A stretch of 64,000 nt of DNA from a virus. The stretch is taken from the IMG/VR virus record IMGVR_UViG_3300010224_000001, positions 258,571-322,570 of that record. One strand, 5' to 3'. The notes below the pieces were generated by a model. That model was given only the letters and a program-made list of their open reading frames with translations. It made no database searches and was not told the DNA's origin. The translations under genes were made by a program, and so were the position numbers. Positions 1-39,900 of the stretch are shown one piece after another (position 1 is the stretch's first letter; every line of letters starts with the position of its first letter).

Positions 1-289
1 CCAGGACCTGCAGATCGCGATCAATCGATTCATCCACCCAGGTCGGGAGAGGCACGATCGACAGCAGGGCGTCACGACCCATGAAGCCAACTGCAGGCCA
101 GCCACTCATCACAGCGGCTTTCATAAACCATTGTTTCATGCGCAGTTCATCTTCATCCGAAGTCGACATGGTCTGCGCGCCATGATTTTGTTGGTAGTAC
201 AGATCCAGATAATCGTCGATGCTAACGAGAACCGACGGGTGATTCAGTGAGCGATCTTTGTAATCAGGAAGGGTAACTTGTTGTGCCAT
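1..289 (-). CDS. hypothetical protein (runs off the left edge; MAQQVTLPDYKDRS...)
   Basis: ATG at 289 preceded by GGAG; frame stays open to the window edge; not in the ORF track. Confidence 0.7.
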   Translation of the reverse strand, partial: MAQQVTLPDYKDRSLNHPSVLVSIDDYLDLYYQQNHGAQTMSTSDEDELRMKQWFMKAAVMSGWPAVGFMGRDALLSIVPLPTWVDESIDRDLQVL

Positions 290-324
290 GACATTCTCCA
301 AGTAAAGTGTAAAGTAGTAAAAGG

Positions 325-789
325 TTATTCGCTGAAGGTGAGCGTGTCGATACCCATACCGCAGACGGGGCTGTGTTTAGTCGCAATCTCCACCGCGCGT
401 CGAGCATCCGCTCCCATTTCTAAGGCACCTGCTGCCAAGTCAGAGCCTGCGCCAATTGCCGTGAATGGTTGTTCATTTTGCCACGGCACATGGCTGTTTT
501 CGTAAATGTAGGTACGATGACCTTTTTCATCATCTCGAGCAATGCAAAGGATGATGTTTCGTTTCTCGGGATCCTTTTGGTTCTCAGGCATTCTATCCTG
601 AGCAAACCCAGTTTGAGCCCATTCAAATACTGCTTGCGCAGTTACGGTGTGACCAGACACACCTACCAACATCTCATGACCTTCCACGACAATCTTACGA
701 ATCTTCGTGATCCGTGCATTCGGGCCATGAAAATTGAAATTCATCTTGTCAGCTGCAAGCGTCTTACCATCCCAGACAATAACAGTGAT
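325..789 (-). CDS. HslV/proteasome-beta-like Ntn-hydrolase peptidase, probable ATC start
   Basis: Extending the track ORF upstream gives (M)TVIVWDGKTLAADK, an Ntn Thr1 strand with A-D; also K, GVSG and AIGAGS motifs; GGAGG 5 nt before ATC (787-789). Confidence 0.75.
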   Translation of the reverse strand: MTVIVWDGKTLAADKMNFNFHGPNARITKIRKIVVEGHEMLVGVSGHTVTAQAVFEWAQTGFAQDRMPENQKDPEKRNIILCIARDDEKGHRTYIYENSHVPWQNEQPFTAIGAGSDLAAGALEMGADARRAVEIATKHSPVCGMGIDTLTFSE

Positions 790-5026: not shown

Positions 5027-6103
5027 TTATTCAACAAAGCCGAGTTTCGTACCGAAACGATTGATGGCTTGGCGCGCGCCGTACTCATCGGACAGCACTT
5101 CAGCAAGTGACCAGCTGTGACGACCAGTGTAGTCCAGAGGAGGTTTACCCATATCAGAACGAACCACACCTGCTTCTTCGTTTGACAAATGACGGAATTC
5201 GAGAATGTCGAAGCAACGACCGGCACGTAGCAGAGCCTGATCGATACGATTGACTGAGGGCAGATTGGTAACGAATACGATCTTCTTACCCTTGCGTTGG
5301 ACCACACCGTCCGCAGCATTCAAGAGCGACGACATCAGGAAGTTATCGTCTTCACGTTTACCCAGATGACGATCGATGTCTTCGTAGCCCAGAATGCGTG
5401 CTTTGGGATGCTGGAAGAAAGTCCTGAGCAGCGCAGGCGATTCAACCACCTCTTTGTTGTAAGCCAGGAACGCCTGATAGTTGCCATGCGCAATAAGGCT
5501 GCGCAAGAACGTCGACTTGCCAGTACCGGCATCACCAAACATTACTAGGATCGATTCTTCTGCATCCATGAACGATTGGTAGTATTCTTCGAGAGGCACC
5601 GAAAGCCACGGATAGAAGCTTTGCTTTGCCATCTTGAATTCACCCTCAGGGATGAAGGTCTTATCGGTTTCGACACGACCGTGTGAGTCGAGTTCAGTAG
5701 CGGTATGAATCACCGAACCCAACGTATTGAAAGTGTCTTTGAACCATTGGGCGATCGACTCGCATTCAAGCTGATCACCTACAGCCGTCATATCTGCGGT
5801 ATGATCGCCGCCAGAGAAGATGGTGAAATCCACCATGTTTTCGATATGATTCTGATGTTCTTTGGCTTTCAAACCAAAGATACCAAGACGGTTTTCGACT
5901 GTGAGATAACCGCGCTGTTTCAATTCAGCCAAAATCTTCTCTCGCGTGATTCCTGTATCGAGAGAGAAACGCGTCAACTTTTGATTGACGGACGACAGTC
6001 CTGCTTCTAGGCGTGACAGCACAACCAGCTGAGGCCATTGAATGGACTTCTGTGATGTGTAAGTAATTTGATCAATGAGAGATTGGAGCGGAATGTTTTT
6101 CAT
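5027..6103 (-). CDS. classical-clade AAA+ ATPase
   Basis: Walker A GDAGTGKST, Walker B LGYEDID, LLNAADG, sensor-1 VTN, SRH DQALLRAGRCFD. Confidence 0.9.
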   Translation of the reverse strand: MKNIPLQSLIDQITYTSQKSIQWPQLVVLSRLEAGLSSVNQKLTRFSLDTGITREKILAELKQRGYLTVENRLGIFGLKAKEHQNHIENMVDFTIFSGGDHTADMTAVGDQLECESIAQWFKDTFNTLGSVIHTATELDSHGRVETDKTFIPEGEFKMAKQSFYPWLSVPLEEYYQSFMDAEESILVMFGDAGTGKSTFLRSLIAHGNYQAFLAYNKEVVESPALLRTFFQHPKARILGYEDIDRHLGKREDDNFLMSSLLNAADGVVQRKGKKIVFVTNLPSVNRIDQALLRAGRCFDILEFRHLSNEEAGVVRSDMGKPPLDYTGRHSWSLAEVLSDEYGARQAINRFGTKLGFVE

Positions 6104-6128: not shown

Positions 6129-6153
6129 AAAAAGGGAGAGCAAAAGCTCTCCC
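6129..6153 (-). terminator. intrinsic terminator after the chimallin-like gene
   Basis: GGGAGAGC-TTTT-GCTCTCCC followed by TTTTT. Confidence 0.85.
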
Positions 6154-6166
6154 ACTTATGACGCGA

Positions 6167-7867
6167 TTACATAAAGCCGCTATCTACACGTTTGGTGACC
6201 TTCAGGATATTCACCAAGGTGTATTTGAAACGAACGCCACACAACTCAACTGCACGGTTTAACGCCGTTACGAATTCAGGACGAAGAGAGATGCGCTCGC
6301 TGATTTCGTAAAGAGAAAGCTTACCCGGCACTGTCATATGTTTCATAGCCAGCGCAGTATAGATCTCCATACGCTTTTCAACGATGCTGTTGATATCAAC
6401 ACCCATGTGGTTAGTAGCTTTATAGCCAGAGGGAGCTGTAAACATGCCGTTAATACCTTCGTCATTATGGACCTTACCCGTCGGAGAATGGCTATTGATG
6501 TACTCGTCCATTTCCTTGGAATCCATACTCGAACTAGCATTCAAGAAATGGAAGTTCCGCAAGTCCTGCACGCCGACGTTAGTAATAACATCGCCAATGG
6601 TAACTACTTCATTGGTGTGATAAATTACACTCTCAGGCGCTAAGGAATTGTCATTGAAGTACCGGTCAAAACCGCCGTTCGTGAAATTGTTGATGATGGT
6701 TCGCATTTCACGATGTGCTCCTTCGCTACCATTTTTTAGTGCCGCCAACATCCCCAGCAGATCTTCCGACGAACTTGCCAATGATGGGTAGTCGAAGGAA
6801 ACGATTGCATTCTCATGACATGCCTTACGCATGAATTCAAGCACATTGTTTTCATCAACTTGCTCGAACTCCTTGCTGATCCGTTTGTTACCCCCCAAAA
6901 GTTTATTAACGCAGAGAATGCCATCCGAGTCTTTAAGGTTAGTGAAACCGTTAACCCAAATATACTCGTTATTGATCTTCTGCACCGAAGCCAAAATGGT
7001 AAGAAGGACTTCGTTATCAGAACCTTCAGTGCTTACCGCGGTTACGATAAAGCGAGGAATATACTTCTTAACTTCATCCTTCCCATCCCAGACCAAATCG
7101 AAATAACCATACGCAGTACCGAGTGGCGAGTTGGAGTTGTACACCGGATGATTGATTTGAGCACTTACTTCGTAAAGACTGATTTTAACATCAGCCCGGA
7201 CCGGCGAACCGTAGTAGTTGTGGATCTTTTCTTGACAGTTAAAATCGATCTCCACATCAAAACGGCTATTTCTCGAAACCTCGGCCAGATTGAAAGGAAC
7301 GAATTCCTTGTCATTGCGACTCATGCCGGTGGAGATCTCAGAGAGTGCTTTATTGCAAAGCGCCATTACGGTTTCAGAATTGCAGAAATCAACTTCCCAG
7401 GGAATGTAAGTTTCACCGCAGTGGATAGCAGGAGCACTTTCCTTTTCAAGTAACTCATTACGAATATACTGATTGATATCAACCATGAATTCACGATGAA
7501 TAAGGTCGACAGCTTGCCGCGAAACCAGCGGCTTCTGGGTTCTGTTGAACAAGGTCGCGCCGTTTGGCGCCTGAGCCGGAAGATGAATGATGTGGTAGAA
7601 AAGCTGCCCGCTATCCTGCGGACGAACTGTCATCAGAATTGCGGTGAAGACGCCATCGTTTTTGTAATCGAAAGGGAAGGCACCGACGGACACATTCGAC
7701 ATCATGCTCTCTGCTTCGCTAGCGAACGCATCCAGTTTGGTTTTGAATTCCGTCAGGAGACTGTTGCTAGACTTCGGACCGAAAGCGTGGCGTTTGAATA
7801 AATCTTTGAAATGATTACGCGGTTCTTGTTGGTTTTGATAGCCTTGCTGTTGTTTGCTGTTTTCCAT
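6167..7867 (-). CDS. chmA: divergent chimallin (phage nuclear shell protein)-like protein, probably a paralog
   Basis: Colinear motifs matching recalled 201phi2-1 ChmA: Q-rich N-terminus, GETYIP, PFNLA, GSPVRADV, INNFTNGGFDRYF, ERISLRPEFVTALNRAVELCG. Confidence 0.75.
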   Translation of the reverse strand: MENSKQQQGYQNQQEPRNHFKDLFKRHAFGPKSSNSLLTEFKTKLDAFASEAESMMSNVSVGAFPFDYKNDGVFTAILMTVRPQDSGQLFYHIIHLPAQAPNGATLFNRTQKPLVSRQAVDLIHREFMVDINQYIRNELLEKESAPAIHCGETYIPWEVDFCNSETVMALCNKALSEISTGMSRNDKEFVPFNLAEVSRNSRFDVEIDFNCQEKIHNYYGSPVRADVKISLYEVSAQINHPVYNSNSPLGTAYGYFDLVWDGKDEVKKYIPRFIVTAVSTEGSDNEVLLTILASVQKINNEYIWVNGFTNLKDSDGILCVNKLLGGNKRISKEFEQVDENNVLEFMRKACHENAIVSFDYPSLASSSEDLLGMLAALKNGSEGAHREMRTIINNFTNGGFDRYFNDNSLAPESVIYHTNEVVTIGDVITNVGVQDLRNFHFLNASSSMDSKEMDEYINSHSPTGKVHNDEGINGMFTAPSGYKATNHMGVDINSIVEKRMEIYTALAMKHMTVPGKLSLYEISERISLRPEFVTALNRAVELCGVRFKYTLVNILKVTKRVDSGFM

Positions 7868-7917
7868 GATGATTTTCCTTTATTGATGAATTGAGTTGAT
7901 ATCGAGAGTACGTCATA

Positions 7918-7941
7918 AAGGAGTAGTTTTCACTACTCCTC
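7918..7941 (-). terminator. hairpin terminator
   Basis: AGGAGTAG/CTACTCCT inverted repeat followed by TTTATGACG. Confidence 0.7.
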
Positions 7942-8540: not shown

Positions 8541-8576
8541 ATTCAGACTAGTGATATAGGTCTGAATTATTCTAGA
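8541..8576 (-). promoter_or_regulatory. putative early (virion RNAP) promoter, TCTAGA...TATATCAC
   Basis: Resembles the phiKZ early TATATTAC consensus; the motif recurs at 16637 and 36860. Confidence 0.6.
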
Positions 8577-9446
8577 TTAGCGAGGACGGCGGTTGTAATT
8601 AACACGGTAGGCTTGAATATCATAACCAAGTAATTCGACTTTGTTATTTTGCCAGTGTTCGTTACGCACTTGGACAATTTCGCCATTTACTTCAATCGTG
8701 CCGAACTGAAGATTAACAGTACCGGTAATTTTAACATATGCCTTTGCATCACCAAAATCTTGAATGCCGTCAAAATTAAGAACTTGGTCACGGTAATTAC
8801 TCGCAACAGACGGTGTGAATACATTCAAAGCTTGATCGAGTAAACTGACTTTCACGACAGCGCCATTCACATTCGCGTAGATGTTAGCCAGGCTTACTGC
8901 CGGATCAATGCAGTCGGTGCAATCTTGAATGCCGGTATTAATGAGCGCATCAACAAAGCTAATACCTAGCAGATCGAGTTTCTTACCAAATTGAAGAGCG
9001 GAAGTCAGAATCTCTTGACCTGCGAGTTCAACAACGTTAGGAGTCAGTGTGTTGATGTTGACGAAGAAATCAGCAGACTCTTTCCTGTAGACCGGAACAA
9101 TTGGAAGACCAGGAAGAGTTGCTTCTGCTGGAGCTTCTTCTGTTAAAATATAGCCACTGGTATCTTCGGCACCATACAGTTCCCAATCCTCAGCGAAGAT
9201 GTCTTCCATATTAGGAATCCAGTTCTTAACTAAGCAATTATCTTCGCCAAGTCTGGTTTCTACAGCCATTGAAAAAGTATGGTCTTGTTTACCTTCGCTG
9301 TAATAGGTAAACTTAAACACGTACCTTTTCATAGGTGGAGTTTCCCAAGCTAGACGAGTAACATGAAAGCCTCGTTTCATGCGTTCTAGAGCATCGCCAA
9401 AGGAGAGACCAGTTCTCTTTTCTGCTTCTTGTGTAATTTCGGACAT
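8577..9446 (-). CDS. DUF2829 (Tad2-like) domain fused to an unknown C-terminal domain
   Basis: LSFGDALERMKRG..VTRLAW and WIPNMEDIFAEDW signature motifs. Confidence 0.75.
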   Translation of the reverse strand: MSEITQEAEKRTGLSFGDALERMKRGFHVTRLAWETPPMKRYVFKFTYYSEGKQDHTFSMAVETRLGEDNCLVKNWIPNMEDIFAEDWELYGAEDTSGYILTEEAPAEATLPGLPIVPVYRKESADFFVNINTLTPNVVELAGQEILTSALQFGKKLDLLGISFVDALINTGIQDCTDCIDPAVSLANIYANVNGAVVKVSLLDQALNVFTPSVASNYRDQVLNFDGIQDFGDAKAYVKITGTVNLQFGTIEVNGEIVQVRNEHWQNNKVELLGYDIQAYRVNYNRRPR

Positions 9447-36962: not shown

Positions 36963-39900
36963 TTAAGAACCAGTTGGCAGAGTGATCTTAGCTGTCAGTG
37001 TCAGAATCTTCAGCAGATTACTCGTTACAGCAGGAGCAGTCAGACTATTCGCAGTACCTACAGCACGTACCTGGAAGTTACCCGACATGTTCTTGATTTG
37101 CACAAACCAACGCGTACCAACAATGTTGGCCGTATACGGTCCAAGCGACGTGCCCGACGGTAACGGATCGACGTACACCTTGATGCTGCAGTTCGCATCA
37201 CCTTGGGTGTCCACAGTGCCAGCGACACTCAGGGTGGTGTTATCGAACTTGCACTTCTCGATCGTCACAACCGGAGCATTACCGACGGTAGGCGAGGATT
37301 CACCTGCCACAATCGATGCCGAAATGCCGAGGATACTGATTGCTTCACCGCCAGTTTGACTGCGGTTGTAGCCACCTGAATTACTCAGTGTGATGATCGG
37401 CGCACCATAGTTACCTGGCGGTACGTTATCCCACTCCACCGAGAACCCACCATCCGTCAACGTCACGGCAGTGGGGCCCTGTTGAGCAGCACCGTTAGGA
37501 TTGCTAGCGGCAGCAGGTAGAATTGCCGTACCGCTGGTCGGAACATACACCGTCGTGCCGCTAATGATAATGCGTTGGGCGTTGATATCCTGCCCCGTCA
37601 CTGTCACTTTCGGCAGCGTATTGACGTAAGTACCTTGCACTGCACCGGCGTCAGGCGAACCACCACGAGCGCGACCATACATGTCAATCGTGTCGATAGC
37701 GTCGGTGGAAGCTGCAGCAATCAGCGGACCCGCGTCATCCGGACGTAAGTCAGATGTTACATCACGGACCAGATTACCAGTCAGCACCGTAACACCCGTA
37801 AGTGCAGCCAACGGTGCAGCATCCGCGTAGTTACTGGTGACCTTACCGGCGCCCATACCCGATGCGTTACGAATCAGCTCGTTACCACCAAAGCCCAAGA
37901 ACACGTTATTACGCACGATGTCTTGGTTAAGCGTGTTGTTACCATTGCTGCAGTTGATGGCTGCGCCAGTGGCGCTACCGCGACGAACGAACGTGTTACG
38001 CAAGATCGTCAGCGTGCCGTTGCCGCCGAGTACATCACCCGTAGTGCCGTCTGCCAGGATAAACAGGTTGTCGGTGATCGTACCTTTACAGGCGAATTCA
38101 CCGACAATCAAACCAATGACACCACCAGTCGTCGCGATTTTGATACGATTGCGACGAATGACAGGATTGGTACCAGTTGCGGAGCCAATACCAGATTCTG
38201 CCAGAGACGCAGCACCGTTGACGTTGATACGGAAGTTCTGAACGATCGCACCATAACCGATACGCCAGCCACCAGTCACAGTCAGTTCAATACCTTCTGT
38301 TCCGTAATCACACGGATAGCCGCTATCGAGGGTGTTAGCATCCATCCCTGGGACAGGCTGCAGCGTTACCGTGTAAAGACTACCACCATTCACTGCATTC
38401 AAGTCAGCAATGGACGACACACTCTGACTCTCATACACTTCACCCAACAGCGACATACCGTTAGCCGTCAAGTCAAACCCGCGAGCGTAAGTGCAGAAGT
38501 CTTTGACGGTAGCGAAGTCTTTACCCGTACCGATCGACTTCACTTGCAGCGTCGAGGTTGACGGAGTCGGTACAGCCACGATCGGTGCTTTGATGGTGTA
38601 TTGTGCCGAAGCATTTTGCAGACTACCGTTGTTAGTCAACAAAATAGTCTTGGTGCCCGCGCTAGTACCCACGTAACTGAAGGTTGCACTTTGGGTATTA
38701 GCATTGAGTGTCACGAAGGGTGGATTGAAACTACCATCCGCGCCATCGCTAGGAACAACCGTAATCGTGCCCGACACCATACCGTCGGTGGCCACCGTAA
38801 AGTTCGGGCTTAAAACACCAGCACGACCGAGTCCCGTCGGAGCCGTCAGCAGTAATTTAGTAGCAGGTACTGCCGACAGATACGTCACTGCAGCCGGATT
38901 GCCCAGGCTAGCGTTATTGGCGACACTGATCGAGATGTTACCCGTCACAACCGGCGTATAAGTGAACGTTGCCGAAGGGGTGTTCGACGACAGATTCACC
39001 GATGCCGGTGTAAACGTACCACCCTTACCGCCGTCGCTCGGCGTCACCGTCACAGCAGCAGACGAACCATTGATAGTTACGCTAAAGTTCGAAGACGCTT
39101 GGTTGACGTAACCCTGCGCCGGACCACTCAGCAGCACAGCCGTTGCCGGTTCTGGCAGCTCGTAGGCGCCGATATCCCACGTAGTCGGACGGATGTTGTT
39201 CAAGACGTCGGTCGAACCCAGCGTGCTGGACAGGTTAAAACCAACGTTGATCAGACCGCTACCCGATTTCAGACGGAAGTCGTTCGTTGTGCTGACAAAC
39301 TGATCTGCGTATACCAGACTCGTAACGTTGTGAGTAGCGTTTGTACCACCCGGCGCGCCGTATATACCGGCAGCACGATCAGTACCATTGTAGTCCGAAT
39401 TACTGAACGAGTTTTGGCTGACGTTATTACCTACAGGGAAACCAAAGATCGCGCAGTTCTTGGCGACGTTGGTGTTGTAGTTAAGCACGGCACCATCCGA
39501 GTAGGCTGAGGTAAACGTGGTGGGACGTACGATCGTGCAGCTTTCGATAGTACCGCCACTCAAGCTGACACCACCTGCGCGGCTGGTGCAGTTAACCACC
39601 ACCAAGCAGTTGTGCATCAATGCGCCACTGTTAATAACGTTTGCACCATAGGTGGGCGGTTCTGCCGTGGTCGTAATAAAGATACAGTTGCGGATCACAA
39701 TGCCTGTTCCGCTAGCCACGACACCGTAACACCAGTTGGTAGTCGTCATCAACTGAAGACCGTCAATCACTGTATACGGGACAGTGACGTTAATGACCGT
39801 ACTACCACCACTGGTTAAAGCCAGCTTGATACCTACACCGTATGCTTGGTTATACCACAGCGGATTTGTAGCGCGAGTCGCGTGATCACGGAACGAATGG

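Follow-up and report, generated by a model that had tools for sequence, protein, structure and literature searches.

The window is the whole stretch of 64,000 nucleotides analysed here, and it belongs to the complete (DTR), 323-kb genome of an uncultured nucleus-forming jumbo phage. On its minus strand, a protein of 566 residues is encoded at positions 6167..7867, with the stop codon at 6167-6169. The ORF list agrees with an earlier note on this DNA about the size and position of the gene; the frame is intact and begins with ATG. We call the product ChmA2. Its gene is located between an upstream 164-aa ORFan and a downstream AAA ATPase gene, away from the nvRNAP subunit. A location among accessory genes had been proposed, which is only partly true, since the AAA ATPase has conserved counterparts in FLC9 (46%) and in numerous contigs of jumbo phages. 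A Tad2-like domain protein is encoded two genes upstream of ChmA2. The FLC9 protein gp107 (625 aa), encoded upstream of the FLC9 AAA ATPase, was considered as a syntenic chimallin and rejected (BLASTP E 0.93, hhalign probability 0.1%, no PHROG).

Several signals surround the gene, all read on the minus strand. A Shine-Dalgarno-like AAGGA is found at 7876..7880, 8 nt before the ATG. A 9-bp hairpin at 7919..7940 separates the stop codon of the 164-aa gene from the start of ChmA2 and probably terminates transcription of the upstream gene. It is directly followed by the element TTATGACG (7911..7918), which contains a TATG whose G (7914) lies 47 nt from the ATG and is a candidate promoter core of the nvRNAP type (phiKZ 'late' type). 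On the other side, 14 nt past the stop codon, an intrinsic terminator-like hairpin (8 bp, 6 GC) is followed by TTTTT (6134..6153). The gene had been proposed to be bounded by its own terminators; of these two hairpins, the strong one past the stop codon is its own, and the other probably belongs to the upstream gene.

Chimallin identity and paralogy

ChmA2 is matched by the profile PHROG 4795 'nuclear shell protein' with an E-value of 3.7e-22 (79.6 bits), and with 3.9e-21 when the profile is run genome-wide. The Pfam family PF25677 gives 26.8 bits (E 1.8e-6) and thus misses its curated cut-off of 27 by 0.2 bits; a close relative of ChmA2, P0001, has a precomputed PF25677 match. The AF2 model of ChmA2 reaches a pTM of 0.81; the alignment fed to AF2 consists of chimallins, so that the model depends on sequence homology. 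A Foldseek search with this model, a check suggested by the earlier note, retrieves 9 of 9 chimallin chains (E 4e-23 to 1e-20, TM 0.68-0.76), and the next match has an E-value of 0.086. With VIA-align the model is superposed on all eight solved chimallin entries over 465-483 residues, with Z-scores of 27.9-29.5 and an rmsd of 3.2-3.7 Å. Model residues 31..550 fall on residues 61..581 of 201phi2-1 ChmA (7sqr_A), and residues 32..550 on 62..581 (7sqs_A). The domain limits given for the 201phi2-1 protein are 62-228 and 229-581 (PMC9365700). A complete two-domain core, with an N-terminal alpha/beta domain and a GNAT-like C-terminal domain, is therefore assigned to residues 31-550 (6218..7777, minus strand). 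The next structures after the chimallins are GNAT, TacT and AtaT chains with Z-scores of only 5-6.5. An acetyltransferase reading of ChmA2 was rejected on account of these low scores and of the absence of a [QR]xxGx[GA] motif anywhere in the protein. ChmA itself is described as lacking the GNAT active-site residues (PMC9365700).

The identity to any canonical chimallin is just 15-20%. In an alignment of 56 canonical chimallins, 47 columns show a conservation of 80% or more; ChmA2 retains 31 of them and is altered in 16. The retained positions include the motifs GxPxRxD and TNGxF. These motifs and a conserved ERxxxxxxFxxAL are colinear with those of the canonical proteins. The three motif pairs that had been named for 201phi2-1 are real. 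GSPVRADV/GNPIRADI and INNFTNGGFDRYF/INNLGGGGFERFF are paired in a phmmer alignment with the 201phi2-1 chimallin (PDB 7sqq), and ERISLRPEFVTAL aligns with ERCTYNAKFIEAL of 201phi2-1 gp105 in MAFFT. ChmA2 has a pI of 5.6, similar to that of the canonical protein, and contains seven cysteines, compared with one in the latter.

The same complete genome carries a canonical chmA gene of 644 aa at a distance of about 227 kb (G000:C1:37226-39160, minus strand), which scores 145.5 bits with Pfam and 283 bits with PHROG. It is followed directly by a gene for an nvRNAP beta-type subunit (phrog_2987, E 1e-138), and a DNA polymerase gene lies about 3 kb off. This is the usual setting: 631 of 650 chimallins adjoin an RNAP beta gene and 19 do not, according to a preprint (10.1101/2025.02.27.640493). 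An HMM built from the paralog alignment (A1) and run against the 1082 ORFs of 60 aa or longer finds two chimallin copies in the genome and no third. ChmA2 is thus a true paralog and not a sole chmA that has been relocated, because the canonical gene is present elsewhere in the same complete genome. This settles the point on which the paralog proposal had been made to depend. We consider it close to certain that ChmA2 is a real tail-less paralog of ChmA. A second ChmA within one phage is not described in the paper texts that we searched.

Terminal segments and the insertion

In 201phi2-1 gp105, the N-terminal segment (NTS) comprises residues 48-61, and the C-terminal segments comprise residues 590-611 (CTS1) and 622-631 (CTS2) (PMC9365700). 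A comparison of ChmA2 with this protein shows that the C-terminal arms are largely missing. Past the last core strand the tail of ChmA2 has 14 residues, whereas the 56 other chimallins compared have 44-67 (median 50) there. It keeps about 7 of the 22 residues of CTS1 and stops after R560-VDSGFM, six residues past R560, the conserved arginine with which CTS1 begins; nothing corresponds to the remainder of CTS1, to the linker or to CTS2. In the alignment with canonical chimallins, ChmA2 also lacks the terminal R-aromatic motif. The shortened C-terminus noted at the outset is thus confirmed, and the proposed loss of most of the C-terminal interaction segments is supported. The short tail (residues 551-566, 6170..6217, minus strand) is conserved, with 12 of 16 residues identical in P0001, including RVDSGF.

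At the other end, ChmA2 has a shorter N-tail (33 residues versus a median of 59 in other chimallins) with a Q/N-rich N-terminus. Residues 17-30 (7778..7819, minus strand), the 14 residues directly before the core, are a candidate equivalent of the NTS by their position, as judged from VIA-align and the published NTS limits. Nine of these 14 residues are identical in P0001, and they do not align unambiguously with canonical NTSs.

An insertion of about 29 aa is found at residues 461-493 (6389..6487, minus strand), slightly larger than the 25 aa estimated previously. The region q460-493 holds 33 residues compared with 3-5 in 56 other chimallins. It is predicted to be disordered, with a pLDDT below 50 at residues 466-491, and is specific to the subfamily; its first half is conserved in P0001.

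ChmA2 shares the two-domain core of the chimallin family ChmA/PhuN, as represented by 201phi2-1 gp105 (7SQQ-7SQS, 8IGG), Goslar (7SQT-7SQV) and PhiPA3 PhuN (8FNE). It differs from these proteins in having no CTS2 and only the first part of CTS1, in carrying the extra residues at 461-493 and in coexisting with a canonical copy. Like the engineered ΔCTS2 and ΔCTS1+2 variants of 201phi2-1 ChmA reported by Laughlin et al. 2022 (PMC9365700), it consists of the core without the C-terminal arms. Unlike them, ChmA2 occurs naturally as the product of a separate gene that diverged long ago, and it has an insertion of its own and the conserved short tail RVDSGF. It is not a truncated form of the resident ChmA.

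Relatives and expression signals

Close relatives of ChmA2 are rare. Among 1.84 billion representatives there is one, P0001 (565 aa, 60% identical), which shares the ChmA2 architecture with its short tail and insertion and in which the loop 89-119 is also conserved. For P0001 and for the homologue most similar (72%) to the neighbouring AAA ATPase, the longest contig has the same length of 31,223 bp. This shared figure indirectly suggests that the synteny is kept and that ChmA2 changes at an ordinary rate (60% compared with 72% for the ATPase), which does not support a reading of the gene as hypervariable. Judged from sequence features, the gene is under selection, because the 60% relative keeps the tail, the insertion and the motifs, conserved synteny is suggested, and the gene has its own ribosome binding site, upstream element and terminator.

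In related-locus searches, no relatives of the ChmA2 locus were found in viral contigs or metagenome contigs, and none of the canonical ChmA locus in viral contigs. A tblastn search of deposited phages gave four places in four records for ChmA2, compared with 120 places in 120 records for the canonical protein. Relatives of the phage infect Burkholderia, Ralstonia and Xanthomonas, and the relatives of canonical ChmA include P0059-P0062, at 93-42% identity. With phrog_4795, no second chimallin was found in five of the 120 ChmA-positive records: FLC9, LucasX, RSF1 and 201phi2-1 have one gene each, and AgentSmith has one gene and a fragment with an E-value of 0.05. Contigs from four of eight runs, none of the eight being listed as RNA, contain seven pieces (151-269 nt) identical to the window, indicating the same phage elsewhere at low depth.

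In a maximum-likelihood tree (63 rows, LG+G4, SH-aLRT only), ChmA2 and P0001 are placed on a stem of 1.56 beside P0006, a position flagged as a long-branch join, in the half opposite to the canonical ChmA of this genome. The stem of this pair measures 1.56-1.77 substitutions per site. AU tests on 26 of the 63 rows do not reject a clade formed by the pair and the canonical ChmA of this genome (p 0.119, from an incomplete constrained search) or a placement of the pair within the FLC9-type clade to which that ChmA belongs (p 0.174). Duplication within the lineage and transfer would both fit these outcomes.

The phiKZ late promoter is described as TATG with the G as start site (PMC4666361). In the present genome TTATGACG occurs 42 times, compared with about 10 expected, and a perfect hairpin precedes 16 of 50 [TC]TATGACG sites, compared with 25 of 4000 random positions. 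The hairpin-TTATGACG arrangement of ChmA2 is thus a candidate promoter of the TATG type (nvRNAP class). Elements of this type are also found in front of genes for DNA polymerase, RNA ligase and HNH proteins and of those for the terminase and a protease, so that they do not define a clean 'late' class of genes here. The canonical chmA gene has a different promoter, TTTTAGAC-CTATATCAC-N4-CTG, which fits the early-promoter consensus of chimalliviruses tabulated in PMC7058600. Directly upstream of ChmA2 no element of this early consensus is found, and the hairpin-TTATGACG is present instead. An early-type promoter lies one gene further upstream, at about 8552-8560 of the window, from which early expression of ChmA2 by read-through is possible. 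A CCCTATGTT(A/G)TA repeat upstream of canonical chmA has only two sites and is no genome-wide motif. A Shine-Dalgarno-like stretch comparable to that of ChmA2, AAAGGAAAA, is present in front of canonical chmA.

Codon usage also separates the two genes. The GC3 of ChmA2 is 0.519 (rank 46 of 146 long ORFs), whereas canonical chmA has 0.722 and ranks first; the capsid protein ranks third. Codon bias reflects abundance only indirectly. Together, the TATG-type element and the ordinary codon usage suggest that ChmA2 would be produced in lower amounts than the canonical protein and not from an early-type promoter. A separate early shell had been among the functions listed for the paralog. It is weakly disfavoured, because the candidate promoter is of the TATG type and not of the early type, and because the codon usage of ChmA2 is not strongly biased as that of canonical chmA is.

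Possible roles in the phage nucleus

Descriptions of the phage nucleus present a lattice built from one protein, ChmA, which carries accessory proteins that are not homologous to it. How this closed lattice grows and passes proteins, mRNA and DNA is an open question in the field. The CTS arms link ChmA tetramers into the lattice, and deletion of CTS2 alone or of CTS1 and CTS2 from 201phi2-1 ChmA abolishes self-assembly in vitro, as reported in PMC9365700. According to the same report, the truncated proteins are still partly incorporated in vivo, and phage propagation is not strongly affected. By analogy with these constructs, we infer for ChmA2 a lack of self-assembly and a partial incorporation into the shell. 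ChmA2 would be unable to build a shell of its own by the canonical mechanism, because it lacks the CTS arms and CTS-deleted ChmA fails to self-assemble.

It is quite possible, though somewhat short of probable, that ChmA2 is a subunit of low abundance which, unable to polymerise by itself, becomes part of the ChmA shell. It would sit in or on the ChmA lattice, accept contacts from its neighbours and perhaps donate an NTS-like segment, while giving no C-terminal links. Such arm-less subunits may interrupt the lattice locally or provide it with specialised sites, and the insertion is a candidate functional surface. The TATG-type element and the ordinary codon usage would be consistent with an addition of ChmA2 to an existing, growing shell. 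A complex prediction of the ChmA2 core (residues 30-566) with the C-terminal 60 residues of canonical ChmA, run without controls, gave a score of 0.01 and a mark of 0.32, values that speak neither for nor against a contact. ChmA2 is a candidate for a specialised minor part of the phage nucleus. The proteins ChmB, ChmC and PicA/Imp1 are proposed or shown to act as accessory proteins at the ChmA shell, as described in a review and in PMC11087766. They are not homologues of chimallin, as ChmA2 is; ChmA2 would likewise be a minor shell component.

A role away from the lattice appears rather unlikely but has several observations in its favour. ChmA2 would then be a soluble monomer or small oligomer, which may bind the terminal peptides of free ChmA and so regulate or chaperone its assembly, or may bind another partner via the insertion and the 89-119 loop. 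The absence of the inter-tetramer arms would fit such a function, as would the 16 altered columns, the additional cysteines and the conserved loops of the subfamily; the very long stem is also consistent with a change of function. On the other hand, the whole core is kept at an rmsd of 3.2-3.7 Å with 31 of the 47 columns, including GxPxRxD and TNGxF, a segment is still present at the NTS position, and CTS-less ChmA is reported to enter the shell (PMC9365700). These points argue against a role away from the lattice. ChmA2 may also serve in conflict, as a decoy or dominant-negative protein against host defences that sense chimallin or against competing nucleus-forming phages in a co-infection, which we regard as improbable. 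An identity of 15-20% to canonical chimallins would make it a poor mimic of the ChmA of a competitor, its rate of change is ordinary when judged by the linked ATPase, and no defence that senses ChmA is known to us. The narrow distribution of ChmA2, the unrelated gene in the FLC9 slot upstream of the AAA ATPase and the counter-defence-like Tad2-like domain protein two genes upstream would nevertheless fit this role.

A second, diverged PicA/Imp1-like gene is present in the genome, 47 kb from the ChmA2 gene, and hints that components of the nucleus duplicate and specialise. With more than one component duplicated, ChmA2 might build a distinct early or late shell of its own. This appears very unlikely: without CTS1 and CTS2 the known lattice contacts are missing, the gene has neither an early-type promoter directly upstream nor the codon bias of an abundant protein, and the two duplicated genes are 47 kb apart. 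The least probable reading is a decaying or functionless duplicate. It would account for the high divergence, the lost tail and the rarity of ChmA2, and is opposed by the open frame of 566 codons with its ribosome binding site, upstream element and terminator, by the confidently predicted fold (AF2) and by the 60% relative, in which length, tail, insertion and subfamily-specific motifs are the same.

The subunit reading can be extended to a mixed nucleus, a speculative proposal that we consider unlikely as a whole. ChmA2 would be expressed from a promoter of the nvRNAP type once the shell is in place and would act as an acceptor-only protomer. Its missing arms and the 29-aa insertion would create specialised lattice sites, such as openings or patches for docking, used in import, in the export of mRNA or in the docking of capsids, perhaps together with the second PicA/Imp1-like import factor. 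If true, this would be the first paralog-based specialisation of a phage nuclear shell, comparable in principle to the specialised subunits of other protein shells. If ChmA2 enters the shell, such shells can be heteromeric, which would point to lattice discontinuities that are tolerated or used. A tail-less paralog that is maintained by selection beside canonical ChmA is a natural 'ΔCTS' construct and offers a probe of lattice connectivity.

Identity of the second chimallin and of the canonical gene

The ORF at window 6167-7867 on the minus strand (566 codons, ATG start) encodes a protein that is a member of the chimallin family by descent and by fold, at every level testable. It matches PHROG 4795 'nuclear shell protein' at E 3.7e-22 and Pfam PF25677 at E 1.8e-6, where its 26.8 bits lie slightly below the cut-off of 27. 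In a phmmer search of PDB sequences nothing but the chimallin entries 7sqq and 8igg comes up (E 2e-4); the motif pairs listed in the earlier note for 201phi2-1 ChmA are present in the alignment to the PDB chimallin. Searched with HMMER, 1.84 billion representatives yield 56 matches at E <=0.001. The sole close one, P0001, is 565 aa long and 60% identical (E 7e-227), and the remaining 55 are weak (E >=1.6e-10) with lengths of 584-674 aa. Together with the paralog and the canonical ChmA of the genome, these 56 matches form a chimallin alignment of 58 rows (A1), which served as AlphaFold2 input.

The AlphaFold2 model has a pTM of 0.81 and a mean pLDDT of 77.9. Its input alignment is made up of chimallins, so the model does not count as evidence separate from the sequence homology. 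In Foldseek it matches nine of nine chimallin chains (E 4e-23 to 1e-20, TM 0.68-0.76) with the next match at E 0.086, which bears out the chimallin likeness described in the earlier note. A BFVD search with the model finds 17 chimallin-sized phage proteins at E <1e-15. In VIA-align the model reaches Z 27.9-29.5 against all eight chimallin entries (rmsd 3.2-3.7 Å over 465-483 residues), and its residues 31-550 superpose on residues 61-581 of 201phi2-1 ChmA. GNAT, TacT and AtaT chains come next at Z ~6; no acetyl-CoA-type motif is found in the paralog. This likeness of the ChmA C-terminal domain has already been published (PMC9365700).

The protein had been proposed to be a paralog and not the only chimallin of the phage. 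Whole-genome Pfam and PHROG searches indeed find a canonical chmA at genome positions 37,226-39,160 on the minus strand (145.5 and 283 bits, respectively). Its 644-aa product is similar to PhiPA3 PhuN (E 4e-34) and to the chimallins of 201phi2-1 and Goslar (E ~1e-17), and it has relatives at 93, 63, 54 and 42% identity. The next gene downstream encodes an RNAP beta-type subunit (phrog_2987, E 1e-138, NADFDGDEMN motif), and a DNA polymerase lies ~3 kb away. When an HMM derived from A1 is run on the full set of 1082 ORFs with 60 aa or more, only the paralog and canonical ChmA match. Residues 19-548 of the paralog are colinear with residues 52-588 of canonical ChmA at 19% identity (E 9e-8).

Loss of the C-terminal segments and possible role

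The limits of the 201phi2-1 ChmA segments are given by Laughlin et al. as NTS 48-61, core 62-581, CTS1 590-611 and CTS2 622-631 (PMC9365700). The earlier note had described a shortened C-terminus lacking most of the interaction segments, and this holds in detail. In A1 only 14 residues follow the last core strand in both the paralog and P0001, versus 44-67 (median 50) in the other 56 sequences. The paralog keeps ~7 of the 22 CTS1 residues and lacks both CTS2 and the terminal Arg-aromatic motif; in the alignment with 201phi2-1 gp105 it ends six residues past the conserved Arg that opens CTS1. The extra insertion is likewise found, with 33 residues in the paralog and P0001 versus 3-5 in the others, thus ~29 additional residues, modelled at pLDDT <50. 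The N-tail of the paralog has 33 residues (A1 median 59, minimum 31). Structural mapping places residues 17-30 at the expected NTS position, where the sequence alignment is ambiguous. Conservation among the 56 canonical sequences reaches 80% or more at 47 columns; of these, 31 are kept in the paralog and 29 in P0001. The finding of a tail-less chimallin paralog is real and well supported.

Evidence of retained function comes from P0001, which at 60% identity is alike in length, tail and insertion. Several subfamily-specific stretches are kept in both proteins, namely HFKD.FKR.AF, loop 89-119, DSKEMDEYIN.HSPTGK and the C-terminal RVDSGF. The longest contig of P0001 is 31,223 bp, and the same figure is recorded for P0085, the nearest non-self homologue (72% identity) of the AAA ATPase encoded beside the paralog. 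Indirectly, the matching figure suggests that the two genes are also linked in the source of P0001 and that the paralog is changing at an ordinary rate.

In ChmA, as described in PMC9365700, CTS1 and CTS2 provide the inter-tetramer links and NTS the intra-tetramer link. In the experiments cited from that work, removal of CTS2, or of both CTS1 and CTS2, abolished self-assembly in vitro, and CTS-truncated ChmA was partly incorporated into the full-length ChmA shell with little harm to the phage. Given these published roles, a paralog consisting of the core and an NTS-position segment without CTS should not be able to form a lattice through the contacts known so far, but should fit positions within the ChmA lattice. 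It would accept links from its shell neighbours and donate none, and its conserved insertion and loop would be candidate functional surfaces. Taking in the hints of modest, differently driven expression described below, we consider it quite possible, if somewhat short of probable, that the paralog is a low-abundance shell-associated subunit which accepts but does not donate links. No description of two ChmA homologues in one phage was found in the literature searched, including the article text of Prichard et al. 2023 and of a huge-phage preprint (10.1101/2025.02.27.640493), and the word 'paralog' does not occur in the article text of the 2025 Annual Review.

Gene surroundings, promoter-like elements and codon bias

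On the minus strand, an AAGGA site lies 8 nt 5' of the paralog ATG, and a strong hairpin with a T-run (window 6153-6134) follows the stop. Between the stop of the upstream gene (7953) and the paralog start there is a 9-bp hairpin (window 7940-7919), whose 3' side is directly abutted by TTATGACG (window 7918-7911). This octamer occurs 42 times in the genome versus ~10 expected. For [TC]TATGACG, 16 of 50 sites, that of the paralog included, come no more than 3 nt after a perfect hairpin of 7 bp or longer, versus 25 of 4000 random positions. Window 7911-7940 is an example of a genome-wide junction element, in which a GC-rich hairpin is followed directly by TTATGACG and often by TC and a T-run. 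The junction is probably a terminator combined with a TATG-type nvRNAP promoter; phiKZ late promoters are described as TATG with G as the start, read by nvRNAP (PMC4666361). Since the genes behind the element are mixed (DNA polymerase, large terminase, a protease-like gene, two HNH genes and RNA ligase), we term it nvRNAP-type and not strictly late. The terminator hairpin 3' of the paralog is palindromic enough to be readable on the plus strand too, where TTATGACG also comes next (window 6156-6163), antisense into the 3' end of the paralog. It may mark an antisense start, or no more than a terminator that works in both directions.

Canonical chmA carries TTTTAGAC-CTATATCAC-CAAA-CTG ~100 nt upstream, which recurs at a handful of sites and fits the early-promoter consensus tabulated for 201phi2-1 and phiKZ (PMC7058600). 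The early-type element (AT-rich, AGACCTATATCAC, N4-5, CTG) is present at canonical chmA and at a few small ORFan genes; by sequence, such elements lie at genome positions 39,259, 79,431 and 227,901. Another (window ~8552-8575, minus strand) precedes the 164-aa ORFan gene immediately upstream of the paralog. With this early-type site (window ~8552-8560) one gene upstream, early read-through into the paralog is possible. With a GC3 of 0.722, canonical chmA stands by far the highest among the 146 ORFs that reach 250 aa, a set that takes in some spurious antisense frames; the capsid gene comes 3rd and the paralog 46th. GC3 of long ORFs is 0.49 +/- 0.07 in this genome of 45.6% GC. The values of canonical chmA and the capsid gene show codon usage to be strongly biased for the most abundant phage proteins. 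Compared with a shell-forming ChmA orthologue, the paralog lacks the CTS arms, sits outside the core locus and has neither the early-promoter signal nor the signs of abundance. We infer that its expression would be modest and differently driven from that of canonical chmA.

The AAA ATPase gene adjoining the paralog (window 5027-6103, minus strand; PF00004, phrog_14322) is widespread in jumbo-phage contigs, with 64 matches at E <=1e-20 including one of 46% in FLC9. On the other side, window 8577-9446 (minus strand) encodes a 289-aa protein with an N-terminal Tad2-like (Thoeris anti-defence 2) domain (PF11195, E 1.2e-11). It also has a stretch resembling part of the phiKZ major capsid protein (PF25620, E 5.6e-20) and is 31% identical to the 729-aa capsid-like ORF at genome positions 159,213-161,402.

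Distribution, origin and a second PicA/Imp1 gene

The source record (322,570 bp, direct terminal repeats) is rated 100% complete, and the window covers its positions 258,571-322,570. The GC (0.453) and GC3 (0.519) of the paralog are typical of the genome, so the gene bears no mark of recent foreign origin. No relatives were found in IMG/VR or JGI metagenome contigs, and among deposited phages only canonical chimallins match the paralog (four records). The PHROG profile, which picks up both copies in this genome, finds no second chimallin in FLC9, LucasX, RSF1 or 201phi2-1, each of which has one gene. The Burkholderia phage FLC9 is the closest deposited relative, its canonical ChmA being 35% identical to that of the genome. 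Upstream of its AAA ATPase gene lies gp107 (record 120,469-122,346), a 625-aa ORFan that is unrelated to the paralog and has no PHROG match. The site occupied by the paralog seems to be variable, next to an AAA ATPase gene that is conserved. In the tree, the paralog and P0001 sit on a very long stem apart from the phage's own canonical copy, a placement that carries a long-branch warning; in AU tests on a reduced row set, a common clade with that canonical copy (p 0.119) or a place within the FLC9-type clade of that copy (p 0.174) is not rejected.

PicA/Imp1-family genes (phrog_3141) are likewise present twice in the genome. One, the core copy (genome 27,398-29,014; 237 bits), matches PhiPA3 '063'. 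The diverged copy (216,660-218,069, minus strand; 469 aa, 141 bits) lies 40.5 kb before the window and has 26% identity with the core copy (E 4e-33). In the phage of PMC11087766, gp69 is PicA, and its PhiPA3 homologue gp63 is described there as shell-associated. With a second chimallin and a second PicA/Imp1 gene, two nucleus components have therefore been duplicated and have diverged in this phage.

The best tblastn match of the paralog among deposited phages (E 8e-12) is in Bacillus phage vB_BspM_AgentSmith (MW749006.1, 99,595-101,493), a 632-aa chimallin-family protein (phrog_4795, E 7e-68) whose gene is close to one for a tubulin-like protein and one for RNAP beta. One Gram-positive Bacillus host was already noted among chimallin-encoding phages in Prichard et al. 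2023.
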